NCBI GenBank assembly: GCA_964591595.1
Contig: CAZQBE010000001.1
Span: 1-28,454, forward strand
DNA: 28,454 nt
Direction: 5' to 3'
Origin: an uncultured Flavobacteriaceae bacterium
GTDB lineage: Bacteria; Bacteroidota; Bacteroidia; Flavobacteriales; Flavobacteriaceae
How positions within the stretch are numbered: position 1 is the first letter of the stretch; each line of letters starts with the position of its first letter. Made by a program: the position numbers and the translations under genes. Shown piece by piece: positions 8,737 to 22,625 of the stretch. The notes beneath the pieces are model-generated. The model was not told the DNA's origin and did not search any database. It saw only the letters and a list, made by a program, of their open reading frames with translations.

Positions 8737-9644
8737 TAATCTTGAATAATTACGTTTTTAGAGTCTTCTTTATTAAACTCAGGTTGTATAGTTATGTGAT
8801 TTATTTGAAATTTCTCGTGTAGTAAAGCTTCTATTTTATTTAAGATTAGATCAAATTCCGAAATACTAACATTCTCTTTTAAATCAAGATGTGCTTCTAA
8901 ATGGAGTTCATCATCATTTAAATACCAAACATGTACATGATGTAATTTATTAACCTTTGGTATTTTATGTACTACTCTTAACATTTCTTTTATATTCACT
9001 TGATCTGGAGTAAATAACATTAATATTTTGGTGGATTTTTTAAGTAAATCGTAACCCACCCAAATTAAATATATAGCTATTAAAAATGTTAATACACTAT
9101 CTACCCAAAACAATTGATAATAACGCATTAATAAACCACCTATCAATACCGCAACACTTGCCATCATGTCTGTAAAAAGATGGAGATATGCTGACTGTAA
9201 ATTAAGGTTATTTTTAGAATCTTTTTTTATTAATAATACACTAAATCCATTAGCAACAATTGCTAATAAAGATAACCAAATAACGATATTGGATTCTATT
9301 TCTTGCGGATTTTGAAACCGTTTAACGGCTTCAATAATTAATAAAACCGCAACTATTACTAGTGTAGAGGCATTAATAAAAGCTGCTAATATCTCCGCTC
9401 TCTTATAACCAAATGTTCTATTAATTGATGCTTTTTTTTTAGAGAGTTTAGACGCTAAAAAACTAATGACTAAAGAAATAACATCGCTAAAATTATGTAA
9501 AGCGTCACTTAATAAAGATAAACTTCCAGAAACAATTCCACCTATAACTTGAGCAACAGTAATTACAATGTTAAGTAGTATAGTGAAAAAAAGTTTTTTA
9601 TCTTTTAAATCGTGGTGGTGGTTATGTGAATGTGAATTATTCAT
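8736..9644 (-). CDS. Cation diffusion facilitator (ZitB/CzcD-like Zn/Co/Cd exporter)
   Basis: His-rich N-terminus, SLLSDALHNFSD, TFGYKRAE, AYLHLFTD, six TM segments, HHVHVW and HITIQPE. Confidence 0.9.
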   Translation of the reverse strand: MNNSHSHNHHHDLKDKKLFFTILLNIVITVAQVIGGIVSGSLSLLSDALHNFSDVISLVISFLASKLSKKKASINRTFGYKRAEILAAFINASTLVIVAVLLIIEAVKRFQNPQEIESNIVIWLSLLAIVANGFSVLLIKKDSKNNLNLQSAYLHLFTDMMASVAVLIGGLLMRYYQLFWVDSVLTFLIAIYLIWVGYDLLKKSTKILMLFTPDQVNIKEMLRVVHKIPKVNKLHHVHVWYLNDDELHLEAHLDLKENVSISEFDLILNKIEALLHEKFQINHITIQPEFNKEDSKNVIIQD

Positions 9645-11311: not shown

Positions 11312-13534
11312 ATGACAAGAAAGAAAAAAAGGAAATCAAGTAACAAGATTTCTAACCTAACAAATACTATCTTAAGTATTTTAAAAAAAGAAATCAATAA
11401 ATCTTTTAATTACAAACAAATAGCTGCTAAACTTGGTGTAAACGATGCTAGTAGTAGAAATCAAATTATAAAAACCTTACAGCGTTTAAAAGCAAAGCAA
11501 GAGATTGAAGAAGTAGATAGAGGAAAATTTAAAGCTATTACATCATTAGAGTATTATACTGGAATTCTAGATATTTCAGCAAGAGGGTCTGGTTATGTAA
11601 TTAGTGAAGATTTTGAGGATGATATTTATATTGCTTCAAATAATATTAACAAAGCTTTAAATGGCGATGAGGTAGAACTCTATGTATATAAAAGGCGTAA
11701 ACGGGGAAAATTAGAAGGTGAAATAACCAAAGTAATTAAACGTGCTAAAACAGAGTATGTAGGTGTTATTCAAATACACAAAAACTATGCATTTTTAATT
11801 GCTGATAACACTAAAATGTATACCGATATTTTTATCCCTATCAATAAAATTAACAAAGCGGAAGATGGCGATAAAGTACTAGTAAAGTTTGAAGACTGGC
11901 CAGAAAAAGCAGATTCTCCTTATGGTAAAGTTATTAAAGTATTAGGAAAACCAGGAGAACACGATACAGAGATTCATTCCATTTTAGCTGAGTACGGCTT
12001 ACCTTATGAATTTTCTCAAGAAGTAGAAGAATACGCTAATAAAATAGACACTTCTATTAATACAGCCGAAATAAAAAAGCGACGTGACATGAGAAAGGTT
12101 TTAACCTTTACCATAGACCCTAAAGACGCTAAAGATTTTGATGATGCTTTATCTTTTCAAGTATTGAAAAACGGAAATTATGAAATAGGCATCCATATAG
12201 CAGATGTTTCACATTATTTACAAGAAGGCACTATTTTGGACGATGAGGCTTACGAGCGAGCAACATCTGTATATTTAGTAGATAGAGTCGTACCAATGCT
12301 TCCTGAAGTATTATCAAATAATGCGTGTTCTTTACGACCAAAAGAAGAAAAATTCACCTTTTCTGCAGTGTTTGAAATTAATGATAAAGCACAAATTAAA
12401 AACCAATGGTTTGGTCGTACAGTAACCTATAGCGATGCCCGTTTTGCTTACGAAGAAGCTCAGGAAATTATAGAAAAAAATGTCACGTTGAGCGAAGTCG
12501 AAACGTCTCAATTAAATACAACAATCCCTAAAGAAATTTCGATTACTGGAAAACAATACAATACAACTCTAGAAATTGCTCAAGCGGTTTTAAAATTAAA
12601 TCAACTTGCAAAAATTATGCGTAAACAGCGTATGCAATCAGGGGCAATATCGTTTGATAAGGTTGAAGTAAAATTTAATTTAGACGAGAATAGCAATCCA
12701 ATTAGTGTATTCTTTAAAACAAGTAAAGATGCCAATAAATTAATTGAAGAATTTATGCTTCTAGCAAACAAAAAAGTCGCAGAATTTATTGGAAAACAAA
12801 GTTCTAAGAAAACATTCGTGTATCGTGTTCATGATGAGCCAAATGACCAGAAACTCGCTGCTTTACAAAATATAGTGAATAAGTTTGGTTATAAACTCAA
12901 TTTTAAAGACCGAAAAAGCACAACCAGTTCTTTAAATAATTTATTAAAAGAAGTTAATGGTAAAAAAGAGCAAAATTTAGTAGACACCCTTACTATACGC
13001 ACCATGAGCAAGGCGGAATATACAACACATAATATAGGACATTATGGTCTAGCGTTTGATTATTATACACATTTTACATCACCAATACGGAGGTATCCAG
13101 ATGTAATGGTACATCGCTTATTACAATATTATTTAGACGGCAATAAGTCGGTTAATGAAGATGTTTTTGAAGAAAAATGCACACACTCGTCAAATATGGA
13201 AAACCTAGCCACAAAAGCCGAACGAGATTCTATAAAATACATGCAAGTTAAGTTTATGCAAGATCATAAGGACCAGGAATTCGCTGGTGTAATATCAGGT
13301 GTTACAGATTGGGGAATTTATGTGGAAATTATAGAAAATAAATGTGAAGGCATGGTACGTATTCGAGATATTAAAGACGACTATTATCGCTTTGATCAAG
13401 ACGAATATGCCCTAGTAGGAGAAGCTACAAAGAATACATATCAATTAGGAGATGAAGTGATTGTTAAAGTAAAACAAGCCGATTTAGTAAGAAAACATCT
13501 AGATTTTACGTTAATAGGTAAGAATGAGGCATAG
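11312..13534 (+). CDS. rnr: Ribonuclease R
   Basis: N-terminal HTH and cold-shock domains, TIDPKDAKDFDDA catalytic motif, VHIAD-like GIHIADV, HFTSPIRRYPD, C-terminal S1 domain. Confidence 0.95.
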   Translation: MTRKKKRKSSNKISNLTNTILSILKKEINKSFNYKQIAAKLGVNDASSRNQIIKTLQRLKAKQEIEEVDRGKFKAITSLEYYTGILDISARGSGYVISEDFEDDIYIASNNINKALNGDEVELYVYKRRKRGKLEGEITKVIKRAKTEYVGVIQIHKNYAFLIADNTKMYTDIFIPINKINKAEDGDKVLVKFEDWPEKADSPYGKVIKVLGKPGEHDTEIHSILAEYGLPYEFSQEVEEYANKIDTSINTAEIKKRRDMRKVLTFTIDPKDAKDFDDALSFQVLKNGNYEIGIHIADVSHYLQEGTILDDEAYERATSVYLVDRVVPMLPEVLSNNACSLRPKEEKFTFSAVFEINDKAQIKNQWFGRTVTYSDARFAYEEAQEIIEKNVTLSEVETSQLNTTIPKEISITGKQYNTTLEIAQAVLKLNQLAKIMRKQRMQSGAISFDKVEVKFNLDENSNPISVFFKTSKDANKLIEEFMLLANKKVAEFIGKQSSKKTFVYRVHDEPNDQKLAALQNIVNKFGYKLNFKDRKSTTSSLNNLLKEVNGKKEQNLVDTLTIRTMSKAEYTTHNIGHYGLAFDYYTHFTSPIRRYPDVMVHRLLQYYLDGNKSVNEDVFEEKCTHSSNMENLATKAERDSIKYMQVKFMQDHKDQEFAGVISGVTDWGIYVEIIENKCEGMVRIRDIKDDYYRFDQDEYALVGEATKNTYQLGDEVIVKVKQADLVRKHLDFTLIGKNEA
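12482..12505 (+). repeat. GTCA-tagged REP-like palindromic unit inserted in frame in rnr (encodes VTLSEVET)
   Basis: GTCA-CGTT-GAGCGAAGTCGA-AACG, with CGTT/AACG pairing. Matches the GTCAnnnTGAGCGnAGTCGAAnnn repeat I recall from Bacteroidota; exactly 8 codons. Confidence 0.7.
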
Positions 13535-15059: not shown

Positions 15060-15130
15060 AGGCGTCTAGCGGATTCGAACCGCTGTACAAGGTTTTGCAG
15101 ACCTCTGCCTAGCCACTCGGCCAAGACGCC
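15060..15130 (-). tRNA. tRNA-Cys (GCA)
   Basis: Minus strand reads GGCGTCTTGGCCGAGTGGCTAGGCAGAGGTCTGCAAAACCTTGTACAGCGGTTCGAATCCGCTAGACGCCT: 7-bp acceptor stem, anticodon loop CTGCAAA, GGTTCGAATCC T arm, discriminator U. CCA is not encoded (TCAA follows). Confidence 0.96.
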
Positions 15131-16022: not shown

Positions 16023-18068
16023 ATGTCTGAAGTTGGGAAATCGCTTAATTTTATTGAGCACATTATAGAGGAAGATTTAGCTAATGGAATGCCGAAAAGC
16101 AATTTACGTTTTCGTTTTCCACCAGAGCCTAATGGCTATTTACACATTGGGCACACTAAAGCCATTGGGATTAGCTTTGGTTTAGGAGAAAGGTACAATG
16201 CTCCTGTAAATCTTAGGTTTGACGACACCAACCCAACAAAAGAAGAGCAAGAGTATGTTGATGCCATTAAAAAGGATATTTCTTGGTTGGGCTATAAATG
16301 GGCTGATGAATGTTATTCTTCTGATTATTTTCAAACACTTTTCAACTGGGCCATTAATATGATTGAAGATGGTAAAGCCTATGTTGATTCTCAATCTAGT
16401 GAAGCTATAGCAGAGCAAAAAGGCACACCTACACAAGTAGGCACCAACAGCCCTTATCGCAATAGAACAATAGCCGAGAATTTAGACTTGTTTAATCAAA
16501 TGAAGAAAGGTGAGTTTGAGGCAGGAGCACATGTATTGCGTGCTAAAATTGATATGGAAGACCCAAACATGTTAATGCGCGACCCGATTATGTACCGCAT
16601 CATGCACGCAACACACCACAGAACAGGAGATAATTGGTGTATTTACCCAATGTACGACTGGACACACGGTGAAAGCGATTATATCGAGCAGGTATCACAT
16701 TCTTTGTGCTCTTTAGAATTTAAACCACATAGAAAGCTTTATAATTGGTTTAGAGACCAAGTGTATCAGTATAGCTCTAAAATACTTCCATTACCACCAA
16801 AACAACGGGAGTTTGCACGTTTAAACTTAAGCTATACCATTATGAGTAAACGTAAGTTGTTAACCCTAGTTGAAGAACACATTGTTTCTGGTTGGGACGA
16901 CCCAAGAATGCCAACAATTTCAGGATTAAGACGACGGGGTTATACACCAAATTCAATTCGGAAATTTGTAGAAACTGTTGGCGTCGCAAAGCGAGAAAAT
17001 ATAATAGATGTTTCACTTTTAGAATTTTGTGTAAGAGAAGATTTAAACAAAATAGCAAACCGTGTGATGGCTGTTTTAAATCCTATTAAACTTGTAATTA
17101 CAAATTATCCAGAAGATAAAGAGGAGTGGTTAGAAGCAGAAAATAATCCAGAGGATGATAATGCAGGATATAGAAAATTACCATTTTCACGTGAATTGTA
17201 TCTTGAAAAAGACGATTTTAAAGAAGATGCCAACAGTAAATATTTTAGATTAACACTAGGTAAAGAAGTGCGCTTAAAAAACGCATATATTATTAAGGGA
17301 GAGAGTGTTTTTAAAGACGTAGAAGGAAATATTACAAAAATTCACTGTACCTATGATGCTAATAGTTTAAGCGGAAGCGGAAGTGAGGCTAGTTTACGCA
17401 AAGTTAAAGGGACATTACATTGGGTGTCTATAAAACACGCCATAAAAGCGGAAGTGAGAGCATATGATAGATTGTTTTTAGACGAAGCGCCAGATAGCCA
17501 TCAAGATAAAACGTTTACGGATTTTATTAATCCAAAGTCTTTAACTATAACTGAGGCTTATTTAGAACCAAGTCTAGCTGAAGCAAAAATAGGAGAACGA
17601 TTTCAATTTCAACGCTTAGGGTATTTTAATATTGATGACGATTCTACACCAGAAAAGCTAGTCTTTAATAAAACGGTTGGTTTACGAGACACTTGGGCTA
17701 AACAAATACCTAAAACAGAAGCTAACCAAAACCAGTCAAAACCACAGGTACAACACCAATCGCGACGCAAACCTATTGATGTGATTAAACAATTGGGAAA
17801 AAAGTACACAAATTTACCAGAAGTAAAGCAACAAAGAGTTAAAGCAGAAATTCAAGAACTAGCAATGAGCGTTACGTATGATGAGCTGCAACCATTATTT
17901 GCTACTGCAGTAAAAAAAACAGGAACACGAATTGCTGTTATGTTAGCACTAGGGGTTTTACTACACAATGGTTTAGAACGCAATGATGAAATCAAGGCTT
18001 TCATTGAAAAAGCCTTAGAAGATAAAAATGAATTACTGGTTTTAGAGGCAAAAGCTTTATCAAAGTAA
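16023..18068 (+). CDS. glnS: Glutamine--tRNA ligase with an extra C-terminal domain
   Basis: RFPPEPNGYLHIGH (HIGH), RFDDTNP, YPMYD, MSKRK (KMSKS equivalent), FQFQRLGYF, FNKTVGLRDTW; ~121 aa follow the usual end. Confidence 0.95.
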   Translation: MSEVGKSLNFIEHIIEEDLANGMPKSNLRFRFPPEPNGYLHIGHTKAIGISFGLGERYNAPVNLRFDDTNPTKEEQEYVDAIKKDISWLGYKWADECYSSDYFQTLFNWAINMIEDGKAYVDSQSSEAIAEQKGTPTQVGTNSPYRNRTIAENLDLFNQMKKGEFEAGAHVLRAKIDMEDPNMLMRDPIMYRIMHATHHRTGDNWCIYPMYDWTHGESDYIEQVSHSLCSLEFKPHRKLYNWFRDQVYQYSSKILPLPPKQREFARLNLSYTIMSKRKLLTLVEEHIVSGWDDPRMPTISGLRRRGYTPNSIRKFVETVGVAKRENIIDVSLLEFCVREDLNKIANRVMAVLNPIKLVITNYPEDKEEWLEAENNPEDDNAGYRKLPFSRELYLEKDDFKEDANSKYFRLTLGKEVRLKNAYIIKGESVFKDVEGNITKIHCTYDANSLSGSGSEASLRKVKGTLHWVSIKHAIKAEVRAYDRLFLDEAPDSHQDKTFTDFINPKSLTITEAYLEPSLAEAKIGERFQFQRLGYFNIDDDSTPEKLVFNKTVGLRDTWAKQIPKTEANQNQSKPQVQHQSRRKPIDVIKQLGKKYTNLPEVKQQRVKAEIQELAMSVTYDELQPLFATAVKKTGTRIAVMLALGVLLHNGLERNDEIKAFIEKALEDKNELLVLEAKALSK

Positions 18069-18130: not shown

Positions 18131-19060
18131 TTATTCGTCCTTATTTTTTCTATTCTGTTCCTTCATTGCTTCACCAATTTGGTTGCTAGCCGTAAAACTT
18201 GCTACCATATCATTAAGCATGTTGCTTCCTGCTTGAGGAGAATTAGGTAATAATATTAAATTACTATTTGTCTCACCTCCAATAGCCTGTAAAGTATCAT
18301 AGTGTTGTGTCACAACGATAAGCGCAGAAGCCTCTTGGGAGTTAATGCCAACCTTGTTTAGTACATCTACAGACTCTTCAAGCCCACGAGCAATTTCACG
18401 TCTTTGATCCGCAATACCCTGTCCTTGCAAACGTTTGCTTTCCGCTTCCGCCTTAGCTTTTTCAACAATCAATATACGTGCAGCGTCACCCTCAAACTGG
18501 GCAGCCACTTTTTCACGTTCAGCAGCATTAATTCTATTCATAGCCTCTTTTACCTGAGAATCAGGATCAATATCTGTTACTAAGGTTTTAATAATATCGT
18601 AACCATAATCCATCATGGCTTCGTTAAGTTCTTTTTTTACAGCTATTGCTATATCATCTTTTTTAACAAAAACATCATCCAGTTTCATTTTAGGCACTTC
18701 AGCACGCACCACATCAAACACATAAGATGTAATTTGATCGTGTGGGTAATCCAACTTATAAAATGCATCATATACTTTAAGTTTGATAACTTTAAATTGA
18801 ACAGAAACTTTTAATCGCACAAACACATCATCTAGTGTTTTGGTTTCAATCATAACATCAAGTTGTTGAATTTTTAGGCTTAAACGACCAGAAATACGAT
18901 CAACCAATGGAATTTTTAAATGTAATCCAGATTGACGAATACTATGAAATTTACCAAAACGCTCAACAATAACAGCGGTTTGTTGTTTTACAATAAAAAA
19001 AGCAGAAATTAGAATTATTAATCCGAAGAAAGCAAGTGGAATGAAAATATATTGACCCAT
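18131..19060 (-). CDS. SPFH / band 7 (stomatin/prohibitin-like) membrane protein
   Basis: N-terminal TM, VERFGK, GLHLKIPLVD, ETKTLDDV, coiled-coil AEAESKRLQGQG. Confidence 0.9.
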   Translation of the reverse strand: MGQYIFIPLAFFGLIILISAFFIVKQQTAVIVERFGKFHSIRQSGLHLKIPLVDRISGRLSLKIQQLDVMIETKTLDDVFVRLKVSVQFKVIKLKVYDAFYKLDYPHDQITSYVFDVVRAEVPKMKLDDVFVKKDDIAIAVKKELNEAMMDYGYDIIKTLVTDIDPDSQVKEAMNRINAAEREKVAAQFEGDAARILIVEKAKAEAESKRLQGQGIADQRREIARGLEESVDVLNKVGINSQEASALIVVTQHYDTLQAIGGETNSNLILLPNSPQAGSNMLNDMVASFTASNQIGEAMKEQNRKNKDE

Positions 19061-19929: not shown

Positions 19930-21531
19930 TTATATTGAGTGTGTTAGTTTCTCAATCCGATTTAGCGTTTCGGCTTTTCCTATCAAAAACATAATATTAA
20001 AAACATCAGGACCTTGTAATGCGCCAACCAAAGCTAATCGTAAAGGCATCATTACTTTTCCAAATCCAATGTCGTTGGTTGTTATCCAACCTTTAATTTG
20101 TGTTTGAAGATTTTCAATAGTATAATCATCAACGCCATTAATAATTGAGATTAATTCAAGCAGCAATGCTTTGGTTCCGTCTTTAATAGCTTTTTTAAAT
20201 GCTTTTTCATCATAAGTTTCTGGAGCAACAAAAAAGAAATGACTTAAACCCCAAAAATCGCTTACAAAAGTGGCGCGTTCTTTTATTAAGTCAACCACTA
20301 AAGACACGTACTTACTGTCAATGTCATTACGAGGAGCTTGCGACGTGGTAATCTCATTGTTTGGGGCAGATTGCTTCGTTTCACTCGCAATGCCGTTTAG
20401 TTGATTATTTATAATTGGTAAAAACTGTTTAACCAATCCATCATTACTTTGTTCCTGTATATAATGATGATTAAACCATTTGATTTTATCAGGATCAAAA
20501 CGAGCACCTGCTTTATGTACACGTCCTAACTCAAAGGTGCTTATTAATTCCTCTAAACTAAAAATTTCTTGTTCTGTTCCTGGATTCCAGCCTAAAAACG
20601 CTAAAAAATTAACCATAGCCTCCGGAAAATAGCCATCTTCTTTATAACCCCTTGAAACGTCTCCTGTAATTGGATCTTTCCACTCCAATGGAAATACAGG
20701 AAAGCCTAATTTATCGCCATCACGTTTACTTAATTTCCCTTTTCCCGTAGGTTTTAAGATTAAAGGTAGGTGTGCAAATTCAGGAGCTTTCCAACCAAAA
20801 GCGAGATACAAAGTAATATGTAAAGGAACTGAAGGCAACCACTCTTCACCGCGAATGACATGAGTAATTTCCATTAAATGATCATCAACAATATTTGCTA
20901 AATGATAAGTAGGCATACCATCACTTTTAAACAATATCTTGTCGTCTAAAACTTCTTTTTTAAAAGAAACATGTCCACGGATTATATCTGTTGTTGAAAT
21001 CGTTCCGTGGGAACCCTCTGTTTTTAGGTCAAGCATTTTAAAACGAATTACATAATCATCTCCATTAGAAATTCTGTTATCAACCTCATCTTTAGTTAAT
21101 GAGATTGAGTTTGTTAGTTTCTCTCTATTATGCCAATTGTAAATGAAGGTCTTACCTTTTGCTTCGTGATCTTTTCTGTGAAAATCTAGTTCTTCGGGGG
21201 TGTCAAATGCGTAATATGCTTTTCTTTCATCAACTAATTTCTTAGCATAATCTCTATATATGTGTTTGCGCTCACTTTGTCTGTATGGCCCTAAACCACC
21301 ATCTTTTCCTGGGCCTTCATCAAAAGGAATACCACACCAATTTAAGGCATCAATAATATAATGTTCAGCGCCTTCAACATAACGGTTTTGGTCGGTATCT
21401 TCTATACGAAGCACAAATGTCCCATTGTGTTTTTTAGCAAACAAATAATTAAAAAGCGCTGTTCTTACGCCTCCAATATGTAAAGGTCCTGTTGGACTTG
21501 GTGCAAAACGCACACGAACAGAGTTACTCAT
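19930..21531 (-). CDS. gltX: Glutamate--tRNA ligase
   Basis: RFAPSPTGPLHIGG, LRIEDTD, PTYHLA, HVIRGEEW, KLSKR, PLRLAL..GPD. Confidence 0.96.
   Translation of the reverse strand: MSNSVRVRFAPSPTGPLHIGGVRTALFNYLFAKKHNGTFVLRIEDTDQNRYVEGAEHYIIDALNWCGIPFDEGPGKDGGLGPYRQSERKHIYRDYAKKLVDERKAYYAFDTPEELDFHRKDHEAKGKTFIYNWHNREKLTNSISLTKDEVDNRISNGDDYVIRFKMLDLKTEGSHGTISTTDIIRGHVSFKKEVLDDKILFKSDGMPTYHLANIVDDHLMEITHVIRGEEWLPSVPLHITLYLAFGWKAPEFAHLPLILKPTGKGKLSKRDGDKLGFPVFPLEWKDPITGDVSRGYKEDGYFPEAMVNFLAFLGWNPGTEQEIFSLEELISTFELGRVHKAGARFDPDKIKWFNHHYIQEQSNDGLVKQFLPIINNQLNGIASETKQSAPNNEITTSQAPRNDIDSKYVSLVVDLIKERATFVSDFWGLSHFFFVAPETYDEKAFKKAIKDGTKALLLELISIINGVDDYTIENLQTQIKGWITTNDIGFGKVMMPLRLALVGALQGPDVFNIMFLIGKAETLNRIEKLTHSI
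20323..20394 (+). repeat. 72-bp GTCA-tagged palindromic repeat (RPE/REP-like) inserted in frame in gltX
   Basis: GTCATTACGAG...CTCGCAATGCC imperfect terminal inverted repeats (9/11), with internal GTAATCT/AGATTGC pairing; adds GIASETKQSAPNNEITTSQAPRND. Confidence 0.8.
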
Positions 21532-21581: not shown

Positions 21582-22625
21582 TTATACCGAAATCATTTCT
21601 TTTGGAACACGTTTATTCATAATATAAAACCACAGAGGGGGAATTAAAGCCAACACCATAGAGGTAGGATAGCCAAAAGGAAGTTGTGGACTTTCGTCAT
21701 GACATTCTAAAACTTGATACTTTTTTGAAGATTTGTAGTGATGATCACTGTGCCGTGTAAGCTCATATAAAATAATTCTACCCACAACATGGTTGGAGTT
21801 CCACGAATGAATTTCTTTAACGCGCTGGTAACGATTAGAATCATTTTTTAAACGCAACAAACCATAATGTTCAATATAGTTTACAGTTTCAAGAAGTAAA
21901 AATGCGGTTAGAGCTGCTAATAAGTCAAAAATCAATCCTATTTCGTCAAAAATTAAAAACACAGTAGTAAGGTAAGATGCTTGAAGAATTGCAAACCAAA
22001 ACATATCGTTTTTTAAAGAGAAGAAGGAATTATTATTGTTTTTTAAAAGAGACATTTGAATCTTCCAAGCGCTTATATATTGTCTAATGGTTGAGGTAAT
22101 CCAAAAAGAATAAACATTTTGTTTGTATCTTGCAGTAGCAGGATCTTCTTTTGTAGCAGCATGTAGATGATGACCGTGATTATGTTCAATAAAAAAATGC
22201 ATATACAGAGAAGGAAGTAACAATAATTTCCCTATAAAACGTTCATTACTATGTAGCCTATGACCAAGTTCGTGCCCAACATTAATACCATTTACCCCTA
22301 AGACCATTCCGGTTGTTAGCACTAAGCCAATATATTCAAAAGTTTTAAGAGAGCCAGACGACACTTCTAGTAAAGCCCAAACCAACACAAAACACACTAT
22401 TGGTAAATTAAGGTATAACAGCCAATCAAAAAGGGGGTTTACTTTTCTGTTTTCTGTTTCTTCTTTAGTAAAATTAGCGTCATTTTGAGGCAACAAAAGC
22501 TCTAAAACAGGAATAAAAACATAAGCATACACAGGAGTTAAGTAAAACCAAATATCTTTTAAGTAAATTCCAATTACAGCACATAGCGGAATGCTGAGCG
22601 CTGCTAAATATTTCAAGTCTCTCAT
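21582..22625 (-). CDS. alkB: Alkane 1-monooxygenase (AlkB family membrane di-iron enzyme)
   Basis: His boxes GHELGH, EHNHGHH, NYIEHYG (HYG motif), RHSDHH; PFGYPT; multiple TM segments. Substrate not established. Confidence 0.85.
   Translation of the reverse strand: MRDLKYLAALSIPLCAVIGIYLKDIWFYLTPVYAYVFIPVLELLLPQNDANFTKEETENRKVNPLFDWLLYLNLPIVCFVLVWALLEVSSGSLKTFEYIGLVLTTGMVLGVNGINVGHELGHRLHSNERFIGKLLLLPSLYMHFFIEHNHGHHLHAATKEDPATARYKQNVYSFWITSTIRQYISAWKIQMSLLKNNNNSFFSLKNDMFWFAILQASYLTTVFLIFDEIGLIFDLLAALTAFLLLETVNYIEHYGLLRLKNDSNRYQRVKEIHSWNSNHVVGRIILYELTRHSDHHYKSSKKYQVLECHDESPQLPFGYPTSMVLALIPPLWFYIMNKRVPKEMISV

Follow-up and report, generated by a model that had tools for sequence, protein, structure and literature searches.

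An inverted dimer of small hairpin repeats, probably of REP type, lies in frame in the glutamate--tRNA ligase gene of an uncultured Flavobacteriaceae bacterium

The DNA analysed here, hereafter the window, is a stretch of 28,454 nucleotides of contig CAZQBE010000001.1 from an uncultured Flavobacteriaceae bacterium, in which two genes, gltX and rnr, were found to carry short palindromic segments in frame. The features considered are the following:

11312 to 13534, plus strand: rnr, ribonuclease R, the second host gene (740 aa; Pfam RNB, CSD2, OB_RNB and S1; PDB 8cdu at 6e-139)
12482 to 12509, plus strand: single in-frame unit in rnr, peptide VTLSEVETS, (t)GTC-ACGTT-GAG-CGAAGTCG(A)-AACGT-CTC
19930 to 21531, minus strand: gltX, glutamate--tRNA ligase, the host gene (533 aa; from the ORF list and translation, Pfam and orthologue names)
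20323 to 20394, minus strand: in-frame insert, an inverted hairpin dimer with its tags outward (72 nt, aa 379-402, GIASETKQSAPNNEITTSQAPRND)
about 20367/20368 to 20394, minus strand: unit 1, first in the mRNA sense (unit B of the preliminary description), (c)GGC-ATTGC-GAG-TGAAA-CGAA-GCAAT-CT
20356 to 20367, minus strand: spacer between the gltX units, 12 nt (GCCCCAAACAAT), codons A-P-N-N
20323 to 20355, plus strand: unit 2, tag-forward (unit A of the preliminary description), (t)GTC-ATTAC-GAG-GAGCTTGCGA-CGTG-GTAAT-CTC

The gltX insert measures exactly 72 nt, equal to 24 gltX codons, and the frame is kept; as a preliminary description of this DNA had proposed, two inverted hairpin units make up an exact 24-codon insertion, and their sequences agree letter for letter with those given there. 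Two Pfam domains were found in the protein, tRNA-synt_1c at residues 5-352 (1.3e-90) and Anticodon_2 at residues 402-528 (1.4e-34), and the insert sits at the junction of the catalytic body and the anticodon-binding domain, according to both Pfam and the alignment with PDB 6b1z. This structure, the closest one solved, aligned to GltX residues 4-375 and 409-530, leaving about 23 surplus residues at the domain junction. Modelling of the insert position, a check suggested in the same description, gave a low-confidence loop between two helices, with residues 377-403 appearing as coil (pLDDT <50) flanked by helices 363-385 and 406-433; this AF2 model, of moderate quality, counts weakly, since its mean pLDDT was 66 and one conserved region was poor too. 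Moreover, when a 32-aa peptide spanning the insert was searched exhaustively against 1.8 billion representative proteins, no protein relatives were retrieved, the sole match being a junk repeat ORF (P0121), and a word-indexed protein database search with the insert peptide gave no candidates. Since only that junk ORF was matched, the 24-aa peptide is no recognisable protein module at the sensitivity of the search. Its length being divisible by three and its gltX frame free of stop codons, the insert would, judging from frame conservation, be translated as a 24-residue loop that the enzyme tolerates; the peptide itself probably has no specific role.

The units follow the grammar (C/T)GTC-A-NNNN-GAG-loop-N'N'N'N'-T-CTC, and the 12-nt spacer separates the two of them in gltX. 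In each unit, an unpaired (C/T)GTC tag and a CTC tail flank a stem of 5 bp that opens with A-T; this encloses a conserved GA/G-N-R internal loop of the form GAG...CG(A/T/C)(A/G) and an inner hairpin or loop that varies. In the gltX stems the opening A-T is followed by T-A, and only 5 bp are uninterrupted before the GA/GNR internal loop and an inner part of 5-24 nt; a kink-turn reading of this loop was considered and dropped on geometry, by reasoning alone. On the minus strand, unit 1 reads GGCA-TTGC-GAG-tgaaacgaa-GCAA-TCTG, and its tag is mutated in the window from CGTC to CGGC, the orthologues showing CGTCATTGCGAGTGAAACGAAGCAATCT with the tag CGTC. Unit 2 reads GTCA-TTAC-GAG-gagcttgcgacgtg-GTAA-TCTC on the plus strand, with a loop that nearly matches canonical loops of the family (GAGCTTTGCGACGAA in locus L083 and GAGCGCAGCGACGTG in several contigs). 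The termini of the insert, GTCATTRCGAG and CTCGYAATGAC, are inverted repeats. Neither a target-site duplication nor a clean empty site was definable at the gltX insert, the insert-free orthologues differing in 10 upstream residues too. In Rfam, no relevant match was obtained in the window, nothing for positions 20250-20470 at E up to 10, and nothing for seven copy-rich viral contigs at E up to 1. In the literature, the DNA motif and its usual translations led to unrelated primers only.

Folding energies, taken by themselves, would leave room for the inverted repeats being a chance feature of a variable linker. The 92-nt gltX region folded with z = -0.69 and the whole dimer at -16.4 kcal/mol (z = -1.43), while single units folded at -6.6, -1.7 and -4.3 kcal/mol, none of them beating shuffles, and the repeat-finding run on the gltX region did not report the arms, which are too short. 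The support for the hairpins is given by the family grammar and by covariation, not by folding stability. In particular, when no more than one departure from the grammar was allowed, four matches were found in the window, compared to a mean of 0.35 in twenty shuffles; three of the four were the two gltX units and the rnr unit, and the fourth (22479-22501) is probably due to chance. No intergenic copy was detected in the window by this grammar, in agreement with what the preliminary description had stated. The exact grammar gave 15 matches in 1.6 Mb of related loci, 0 in five shuffles and 0-1 in five decoy grammars, and allowing at most one deviation gave 69 matches in 1.69 Mb of relatives (about 11 expected). 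Scanning more loosely, for 'GTC plus any hairpin', produced too much noise in AT-rich DNA, with 40 matches vs. ~24 in shuffles. With the grammar exceeding shuffles and decoys in the window and in related loci, and with hundreds of near-identical copies present elsewhere, the chance explanation is already refuted, and its probability is practically nil.

The copy in rnr reads GTCA-CGTT-GAG-cgaagtcga-AACG-TCTC, and its positions 12482-12509 match the gltX grammar, a likeness that had been claimed beforehand; on this match, the rnr insert can be assigned, as a single unit, to the same superfamily as the gltX units. An 11-aa presence/absence polymorphism was found among rnr orthologues, and relatives hold alternative members of the family at the site. 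In those with an RNase R 89-94% identical, the site is either empty or occupied by a unit of GAG or CGTC-1 type, the CGTC-1 form being tgtc-ATTCCTGC-gaag-GCAGGAAT-cca with the peptide VIPAKAGI.

Most Flavobacteriaceae GltX proteins have 503-512 aa and lack the insert, which several genera carry at the same site, the carriers including Wocania ichthyoenteri, Winogradskyella maritima CECT 8979 and Ca. Marifrigoribacter Uisw_064. The orthologue forms, all in frame, comprised proteins of 503 aa without the insert, others with the 24-aa insert, a 12-aa deletion and longer ones. The alignment of GltX orthologues, proposed beforehand as a check, revealed this presence/absence, with repeat-less orthologues 21-30 aa shorter; repeat-less orthologues of equal length, or a lack of similar sequences elsewhere, had been named as grounds for rejecting the insertion, and neither was found. 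Closely related syntenic genomes also lacked the gltX insert, and the close relatives L204, L205 and L206 had either no insert or a remnant of 12 aa whose stems are broken. Different genera share a conserved peptide (consensus VIASETKQSxxNxEITTSQxPRND), which adjoins the anticodon-binding domain; both facts would favour the view that the 24 residues serve GluRS as a lineage-specific functional module, such as a tRNA contact, and that the DNA palindrome is incidental. However, the same DNA appears between genes and in PurL, Mfd and GcvP, its conservation is at the nucleotide level, third positions included, and the spacer codons are free to vary. Together with the syntenic genomes lacking the insert and with the absence of a related module among the 1.8 billion representative proteins, these observations largely refute such a module, which is very improbable.

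The conservation of the repeat DNA was unevenly distributed within the insert. Mean pairwise identities among the orthologues were 97.0% and 95.8% for the two units and 62.5% for the spacer, so that units ~96-97% identical were shared by genomes whose gltX genes are 71-84% identical, with the spacer and the flanks at background (90-nt flanks 67-83% identical, near the gene means of 72-77%). Third codon positions at identical amino acids of the insert matched at 94-100% among the five orthologues with the canonical 72-nt insert and at 73-84% in pairs with L137, compared to 54-60% in the remaining gltX of distant pairs. Furthermore, the loop sequences of the units were conserved, beyond stem pairing, and the spacer codons varied freely. 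The fourth stem pair of unit 2 at the orthologous site was A-U in four, G-C in three and U-A in two distinct sequences, unpaired in none of them, and its covariation score was reached by 0 of 500 shuffles. The preliminary description had read TTAC/GTAA vs. TTGC/GCAA as a compensated difference; the pairing is indeed kept, but rather than an in-place change within gltX, the ATTGC-type and ATTAC-type units are two standing subtypes pairing as heterodimers; intergenic dimers show the same pairing.

Near-invariant units point to constraint on, or homogenisation of, DNA or RNA, and may reflect hairpin recognition by some putative factor or homogenisation against other copies. Units that hardly vary next to a spacer that evolves freely, within one 72-nt insert, provide a built-in control unreported in earlier surveys. 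One extension of the tolerated-loop explanation, adding to it rather than replacing it, is that the repeat was put to use, the gltX units being selected in cis as nucleic acid (as an RNA or DNA site bound by a conserved factor, by affecting mRNA stability or by pausing translation at the domain boundary). It is favoured by the almost invariant synonymous sites of the units beside a spacer and flanks at the background rate of the gene, by the conservation of loops besides stem pairing, by a fourth stem pair altered only with compensation, and by unpaired family motifs kept across very different genomes. Against it, close relatives have no insert or the 12-aa broken-stem remnant (L205, L206, L204), the hairpins are weak, and the unit sequence is common elsewhere, so that conservation could stem from copying between copies, not from selection at gltX. 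Such a use in cis is unlikely on balance. An equally improbable, broader form of it would make the units an undescribed cross-phylum nucleic-acid motif with a putative conserved factor, defined by the 5-bp helix with its GA/GNR internal loop, by an inner helix that varies and by (C/T)GTC and CTC flanks that do not, the copies in gltX, rnr, purL and mfd being cis-elements under purifying selection at the nucleotide level. If true, copies in coding sequences would be working cis-elements, not decaying passengers.

Likewise, the similarity of the copies bears on whether all genera inherited one insertion. Were the gltX site a hot spot, hit repeatedly or overwritten by gene conversion, the copies would look so similar without all deriving from a single event. 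The rnr site fits this idea, with GAG-type, CGTC-1-type and absent units alternating there among relatives whose RNase R proteins are 89-94% identical, as does the gltX site of L146, in which an ACCCT/AGGGT unit replaces the ATTGC unit and is followed by the 3' end of unit 2. In addition, the gltX unit and the rnr unit of L207 share a similar 15-nt inner palindrome, and gltX is a mosaic among close relatives, with 79-87% aa identity vs. 90-99% for most neighbour genes. On the other side, spacer sequences divide the gltX copies into a pair of related groups (xxxCCAAACxAx and GTTTCTAATGAT), a donor with the identical spacer was not seen, and the upstream flank PI(I/V)(N/D)xxLN accompanies the insert in carriers, a co-occurrence that fits inheritance of the whole segment; L145 and L151 have this flank and no recognisable insert. 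Repeated hits or overwriting at the site are a minority possibility, somewhat less remote than selection in cis.

Outside the two genes, the family was found in large numbers. Viral contigs matching CATTGCGAG..GCAATCT numbered at least 120, with at least 166 matches, and compact dimers were found in at least 68 viral contigs. A relaxed parse of the listed viral contigs returned 159 units, of which 92% were preceded by TGTC or CGTC and 62% were followed by a CTC tail. Among the matches listed, the base ahead of GTC was T in 114 and C in 33 of the 159 units, and the 3-nt tail was CTC in 99 and CCA in three of them, with CTT, CCC, CTG and CTA as minor forms. The listed matches in viral and metagenome contigs yielded 270 distinct inner regions; the 3' side of the internal loop was CGAA, CGTG or CGCG in 237 of them, and many inner regions were covarying hairpins. 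Dimer layouts among the matches listed were tags-outward in 11 cases and tags-inward in two, with seven tandem pairs in the same orientation. Moreover, the 27-mer of unit 1, common in unrelated metagenome contigs, was found together with the dimer layout in at least 120 metagenome contigs, mostly without an overlapping ORF.

With regard to their genomic context, dimers lay in the same reading frame as in gltX within PurL (L290 and L350) and Mfd (L366), and in a frame different from that of gltX in GcvP (L306). A further dimer, between the Mu portal and Mu F domains in L254, may therefore be an intergenic spacer read open and was left out of the intragenic count. Most long dimer-spanning ORFs in viral contigs had no Pfam domain. 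Intergenic ATTGC/ATTAC dimers included one heterodimer in L207 (9851-9934), directly after the gltX stop, and three between convergent genes in L137 (18020-18393), and in related genomes the copies outside gltX and rnr were mostly intergenic. The family is mostly intergenic and spans many bacterial lineages and phage-like contigs. The earlier suggestion that it is 'colonising housekeeping ORFs here' overstated recency and preference, because the gltX insertion is common to many genera and the copies of related genomes are mostly intergenic.

Rickettsia palindromic elements (RPE), reportedly described by Ogata et al. in Science in 2000, are in-frame palindromic repeats in housekeeping genes, read as extra surface peptides and present or absent among orthologues; RPE-1 is 100-150 bp long and Rickettsia-specific. 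The gltX insert shares with them the in-frame insertion in conserved genes, the presence/absence among orthologues and a surface position, at a domain junction with a low-confidence AF2 loop. It differs in length, as its 27-33-nt units form a dimer of 72 nt, in its hosts, which are free-living marine Flavobacteriaceae, and in belonging to a family common to many bacteria and phage-like contigs. The link rests on RPE-4 and RPE-6 being called CGTC-type in the text of Di Nocera, De Gregorio and Rocco 2013 (BMC Genomics 14:522, PMC3733652).

According to that paper, the CGTC-tagged REPs include Neisseria dRS3 (CGTC-1) and RPE-6 of Rickettsia conorii besides RPE-4, and have CGTC/TGTC tags (with TGTC and CCTC as variants beside CGTC), and AT-opening stems; their units are predominantly arranged as inverted dimers and also form heterodimers, and dimers that fall within genes encode 20-30 aa. 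In the families described there, the stem is 8-9 bp long and starts with two A-T pairs, the loop measures 4-5 nt, and the unpaired 3-nt tail has the consensus CCA; the supplement gives the peptides VIPAKAGI and ...DSRLRGND, and the text reports these repeats in Bacteroidetes (Gramella forsetii), with no dedicated transposase known. In-frame dimers of 20-30 aa are therefore already known in that superfamily (PMC3733652). The units studied here have in common with it the unpaired tag (TGTC in unit 2 and the rnr unit, CGGC in unit 1 and CGTC in its orthologues), the A-T stem opening, the short unpaired tail, the lack of a known dedicated transposase, the prevalence of inverted dimers and heterodimers (tags-outward over tags-inward by 11 to two among the matches listed) and a multicopy, mainly intergenic distribution with in-frame singles and dimers (gltX, rnr, purL and mfd here, and gcvP in another frame). 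A likeness to CGTC-tagged repeats and RPEs had also been put forward in the preliminary description, and it holds for the tag, the A-T opening, the inverted dimers and the in-frame copies. In contrast, the published 8-9 bp stem with a 4-5 nt loop is replaced here by a 5-bp stem, a GA/GNR loop and a variable inner part, and the CCA tail by a conserved 3-nt CTC. Judged from the text of PMC3733652, CGTC families 1-4 do not fit the gltX units, and the stem and loop of CGTC-1 are seen in the rnr alleles of relatives (ATTCCTGC-gaag-GCAGGAAT), not in the gltX units. The gltX units stand closest to the CGTC-tagged REP superfamily, possibly as an undescribed subfamily.

In the REPIN and RAYT system (Bertels and Rainey 2011, PMC3116915), an inverted doublet of REP hairpins, each bearing a conserved 5' tetranucleotide at its foot, is considered to be what moves. 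Insertions of REPs in frame, even within subclass 2.4 tnpA_REP genes, are described in the work on TnpA_REP classes (PMC6006769), where subclass 2.6 is mostly from Bacteroidetes and flanked by 'atypical secondary structures'. The inverted doublet layout with a conserved tetranucleotide at the hairpin foot is shared with the insert, but its tag is (C/T)GTC followed by A, vs. GT(A/G)G in REPINs, and no RAYT gene was found beside any copy in the fetched loci. Small dispersed repeats (SDR), said to have been reported by Elhai et al. in 2008 from Nostoc and other cyanobacteria, are hairpin repeats of <30 nt with conserved flanks and compensated stems, nested, and present or absent at otherwise homologous sites. 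Compared by description only, they share the tiny size, compensated stems, nesting and presence/absence, and differ in phylum and sequence family.

Considering the anatomy, family membership, in-frame presence/absence, domain-junction position, one covarying stem pair and nucleotide conservation of the units, all established for the gltX insert, this segment is probably a REP-type inverted dimer that entered the interdomain linker of GluRS in an ancestor of some Flavobacteriaceae and has persisted as a tolerated loop. Under this explanation, a REPIN-like doublet of a small REP-type repeat would have entered the gltX linker in the ancestor of a subset of the family and, being a multiple of three and stop-free in the gltX frame, would have been read through as a 24-residue loop tolerated by GluRS. 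By analogy with REP/RAYT and IS200/IS605, the element may have arrived by transposition of single-stranded hairpin DNA. No parent insertion sequence of the MITE kind is known for the insert, and the look for a mobilising nuclease or transposase proposed in the preliminary description found none, the HUH/Y1 protein motif HUH...W(Q/E)...Y(I/V)xxNP being absent from 4.06 Mb of fetched loci; loci as short as these make the scan a weak test.

The gltX insert is a known kind of event with an unusually strong conservation of the repeat DNA, and this conservation of the units goes beyond the known picture of in-frame repeats. It is, moreover, a clear non-rickettsial example of how a small palindromic repeat makes a new peptide loop in essential or housekeeping enzymes (GluRS, RNase R, PurL and Mfd), and belongs to a very widespread family, including phage-like contigs, with no Rfam model and no known mobilising enzyme. 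Cultured marine Flavobacteriaceae offer a natural allelic series (no insert, single unit, dimer, nested-hairpin dimer and deletion remnant), so that two questions can be put to the test: how proteins absorb insertions, and whether DNA or RNA properties are what preserves the repeat. Finally, when the folding energy of each unit was compared with that of its reverse complement, the tag strand was the more stable in 184 of 217 units; the constant internal loop adds a fixed offset to this comparison, and G-U counts were similar (62 vs. 50).

The preliminary description of a palindromic element lying in frame within gltX was confirmed as an observation, and its interpretation as a repeat insertion was supported. 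Most likely, a REPIN-like hairpin dimer (two inverted units separated by a spacer, with their tags, the unpaired (C/T)GTC at the hairpin foot, pointing outwards) was inserted in frame long ago into the interdomain linker of GltX, where it would be tolerated as a loop. The sequence was re-read at 20323-20394 and 12482-12509, and all the details previously reported for the gltX units and the rnr unit were found to be correct.

Features of the window
19930-21531, minus strand: gltX, 533 aa
GltX residues 5-352: class I catalytic domain
GltX residues 402-528: anticodon-binding domain
20323-20394 (GltX residues 379-402), exactly 72 nt: insert, GIASETKQSAPNNEITTSQAPRND
20394-20368, mRNA strand: unit 1, GGC-ATTGC-GAG-TGAAA-CGAA-GCAAT-CT
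12 nt between the two units, mRNA strand: spacer, GCCCCAAACAAT
20323-20355: unit 2, inverted, with the plus-strand reading GTC-ATTAC-GAG-GAGCTTGCGA-CGTG-GTAAT-CTC
12482-12509: third unit, in frame in rnr, GTC-ACGTT-GAG-CGAAGTCGA-AACGT-CTC
15060-15130, minus strand: tRNA gene (Rfam RF00005, 60.9 bits)

The alignment with the closest solved GluRS (6b1z) covered GltX residues 4-375 and 409-530, and the gap between 375 and 409 thus placed the extra residues where the two halves meet. Residues 377-403 were a low-confidence coil flanked by two helices in an AF2 model of moderate quality.

GltX ranged from 503 to 543 aa in Flavobacteriaceae. In most of the 80 genomes compared, the protein was 503-505 aa long, with a short linker (FKxxxxELxxID). 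A near-identical peptide (VIASETKQSxxNxEITTSQxPRND) occupied this site in Wocania, Hyunsoonleella, Algibacter, Pontimicrobium, Winogradskyella maritima and several metagenome-assembled genomes, with diverged forms in Psychroserpens, Gelatiniphilus and Hwangdonia. The site was also compared in five syntenic close relatives (L124 and L204 to L207), whose neighbouring proteins were mostly 90-99% identical. The window and L124 had the full dimer, L207 the full dimer with an inner palindrome of 15 nt added to the unit 1 loop, and L204 a 12-aa remnant with broken stems, while L205 and L206 had no insert. Since every length variant at this site was a multiple of three without a stop codon, the segment was taken as translated.

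Moreover, L204 and L129, from two distant lineages, had lost the same 36 nt from the interior of the dimer (leaving ETKQP.ND), either because deletions across the hairpins recur or because the allele is old. At the gltX site of L146, an ACCCT/AGGGT-stem unit (peptide VTLSAIEGS) stood in place of unit 1, and the 3′ terminus of unit 2 (CTCGTAATGTC) came immediately after it. In L207, both unit 1 of gltX (9367-9408) and the rnr unit (18148-18189) had a loop enlarged by a 15-nt inner palindrome with the common core CCGAT-nnCT-ATCGG, adding 5 aa to each of GltX and RNase R; it may come from a nested insertion or from conversion by long-form copies. A second indel site in gltX lay near residue 74, where L205 and L207 had a 9-aa insert, ASTKLSDQK (in other genera, TSATLSTGS), for which the reverse strand of a short unit of similar grammar (GTC-GCT-GAG-ttttgt-CGA-AGC) codes; the window lacked it, the empty site being near 21305-21315. 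Furthermore, gltX was 79-87% identical among the close relatives, compared to 90-99% for most neighbouring genes, and from window positions ~21004-21039 (residues 165-176) on to about residue 245 it fell into two allelic blocks (MLDLKTEGSHGT...HVSFKKE...VPLHITLY vs. SPQDET...DIKIDTN...LALHYQLY) that assorted independently of the insert, a mosaic pattern that suggests recombination.

The contrast between the TTAC/GTAA and TTGC/GCAA stems, previously read as compensatory change within this insert, is real but is a property of the family, as ATTGC/ATTAC heterodimers were also present in intergenic copies. Covariation was tested at orthologous gltX sites located by gene context and not by the hairpin itself. 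Of all stem cells, 95.6% were paired, and the only varying pair was the fourth of unit 2, which was A-U in four, G-C in three and U-A in two distinct sequences and unpaired in none. The covariation score was reached by none of 500 shuffles, and slid registers collapsed.

Folding energy says little about whether the hairpins exceed chance. The 92-nt region had a z of -0.69, the single units folded at -6.6, -1.7 and -4.3 kcal/mol with shuffles at least as good, and the whole dimer at -16.4 kcal/mol (z = -1.43). On the other hand, the grammar GTCA-N4-GAG-(3-28 nt)-N4′-TCT was highly specific, with 15 exact matches in 1.6 Mb of related genomes vs. none in five shuffles and 0-1 in five decoy grammars. 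Allowing at most one deviation, 69 matches vs. ~11 were found in the relatives (1.69 Mb), and four in the window vs. a shuffle mean of 0.35, three of which were the gltX and rnr units. The fourth (22479-22501, GTCATTTTGAGgcaacAAAAGCT; one deviation), within a fatty-acid desaturase gene, is probably due to chance, 0.35 such matches being expected per window.

What deserves further work is how strongly the units are conserved at the nucleotide level. The insert was 86-93% identical between genomes whose gltX DNA was 71-76% identical (75-85% in pairs with L137, from Winogradskyella maritima) and counted among the best-conserved 72-nt stretches of gltX; the 90-nt flanks on each side were 67-83% identical, near the gene means of 72-77%. 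At identical amino acids, third codon positions matched in 94-100% of cases among the five inserts of the canonical 72 nt (for pairs with L137, 73-84%) and in 54-60% in the rest of gltX for distant pairs. Within the insert, the two units reached 97.0% and 95.8% identity, and the 12-nt spacer 62.5%. The peptide cannot account for this pattern, which points to one of two causes: either the nucleic acid, with its loops, is under purifying selection, or the units are homogenised against other copies of a family that itself has a strongly conserved consensus. Turnover or conversion is favoured by the different elements that occupy the rnr site, by the L146 unit with its ACCCT/AGGGT stem and by the inner palindromes that L207 has, in similar form, in both genes, while the related spacers, and the upstream flank PI(I/V)(N/D)xxLN that accompanies the insert, speak for the gltX insert having been inherited whole. 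In two loci (L145 and L151), this flank was present and a recognisable insert absent.

At the rnr site, ~11 residues were present or absent among orthologues, and different lineages had different members of the repeat superfamily. A GAG-type unit (GTCA-N4-GAG grammar; peptide VTLSEVETS) was found in the window, L205, L207, Formosa and Xanthomarina, and a classical hairpin, tGTC-ATTCCTGC-GAAG-GCAGGAAT-CCA/CTC (VIPAKAGIS), in Lacinutrix, Winogradskyella and Gelidibacter, being decayed in the latter. The close relative L204 had a one-mismatch version of the classical hairpin (VISAKAGIS), of the type of the published CGTC-1 family, and the site was empty in L124, L206 and others. Thus, three states (GAG-type, CGTC-1-type and no insert) occurred among close relatives; both types of unit also recurred at this site in distant genera.

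Beyond these genes, at least 166 matches to CATTGCGAG-N(6-20)-GCAATCT were found in at least 120 viral contigs, with compact dimers in at least 68. A relaxed parse of the listed viral contigs gave 159 units, preceded by TGTC or CGTC in 92% and followed by the tail CTC in 62%; inverted dimers with outward tags were the commonest arrangement (11 vs. two with inward tags), with seven same-orientation tandem pairs. The 3′ side of the internal loop was CGAA, CGTG or CGCG in 237 of the 270 distinct inner regions from the listed viral and metagenome contigs, and many inner regions among the listed matches were covarying hairpins. A metagenome scan keyed on the unit 1 loop found the exact TGTCATTGCGAGTGAAACGAAGCAATCT in many contigs of 0.30-0.55 G+C among the matches listed, and the gltX units therefore count as unremarkable representatives of a widespread family. 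Most listed metagenome matches were dimers without an ORF over them. In metagenome contigs, the same dimer appeared in the same reading frame in PurL of two organisms (L290 4798-8613; L350 3473-4450), at the same site just before the glutaminase domain, and in Mfd (L366 1322-4753), between the UvrB-interaction and RID domains, and in another frame in GcvP (L306 2052-3599). In a Mu-like phage contig (L254 1857-4055), a dimer lay between portal and protein-F domains within one long ORF; it may join two genes, or may be an intergenic spacer open by chance. Copies outside gltX and rnr in the Flavobacteriaceae loci were mostly intergenic, including an ATTGC/ATTAC heterodimer 5 nt past the gltX stop codon of L207 (9851-9934), whose genome also has the intragenic dimer, and three tandem dimers between convergent ORFs of L137 (18020-18393), with a period of ~137 bp, a conserved 25-nt spacer and a long covarying inner hairpin in each unit.

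No Rfam model matched the hairpin repeats. The available text of Di Nocera et al. 2013 (PMC3733652) defines CGTC-tagged REPs, present in Bacteroidetes without a dedicated transposase, by a CGTC (often TGTC) tag, A-T-opening stems and 3-nt tails. [quoted passage not shown] The resemblance proposed earlier held against that text for the tag, A-T opening, tail position, dimer habit and intragenic behaviour, and VIASETKQS...APRND has the layout of the supplementary peptide SIPAKAGIQ...DSRLRGNA, listed there along with VIPAKAGI. However, the window units fall outside the 8-9 bp stem, 4-5 nt loop and CCA tail published there. Because they share these features and fail that definition, they were treated as a related subfamily, probably one undescribed in that text, of the CGTC-tagged superfamily. 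By analogy, a single-stranded hairpin may be the intermediate through which the dimer moves. The mobiliser could plausibly be a RAYT-type enzyme; members of subclass 2.6 come mostly from Bacteroidetes and have 'atypical secondary structures' on their flanks (PMC6006769). A motif scan of the 4.06 Mb of fetched loci detected no RAYT-type gene.

Finally, GlnRS (glnS, 16023-18068; 681 aa) had a Q/N-rich variable stretch near its C-terminal end (residues ~573-580), in which no repeat grammar was seen and which differed by 2-7 aa in length among close relatives.
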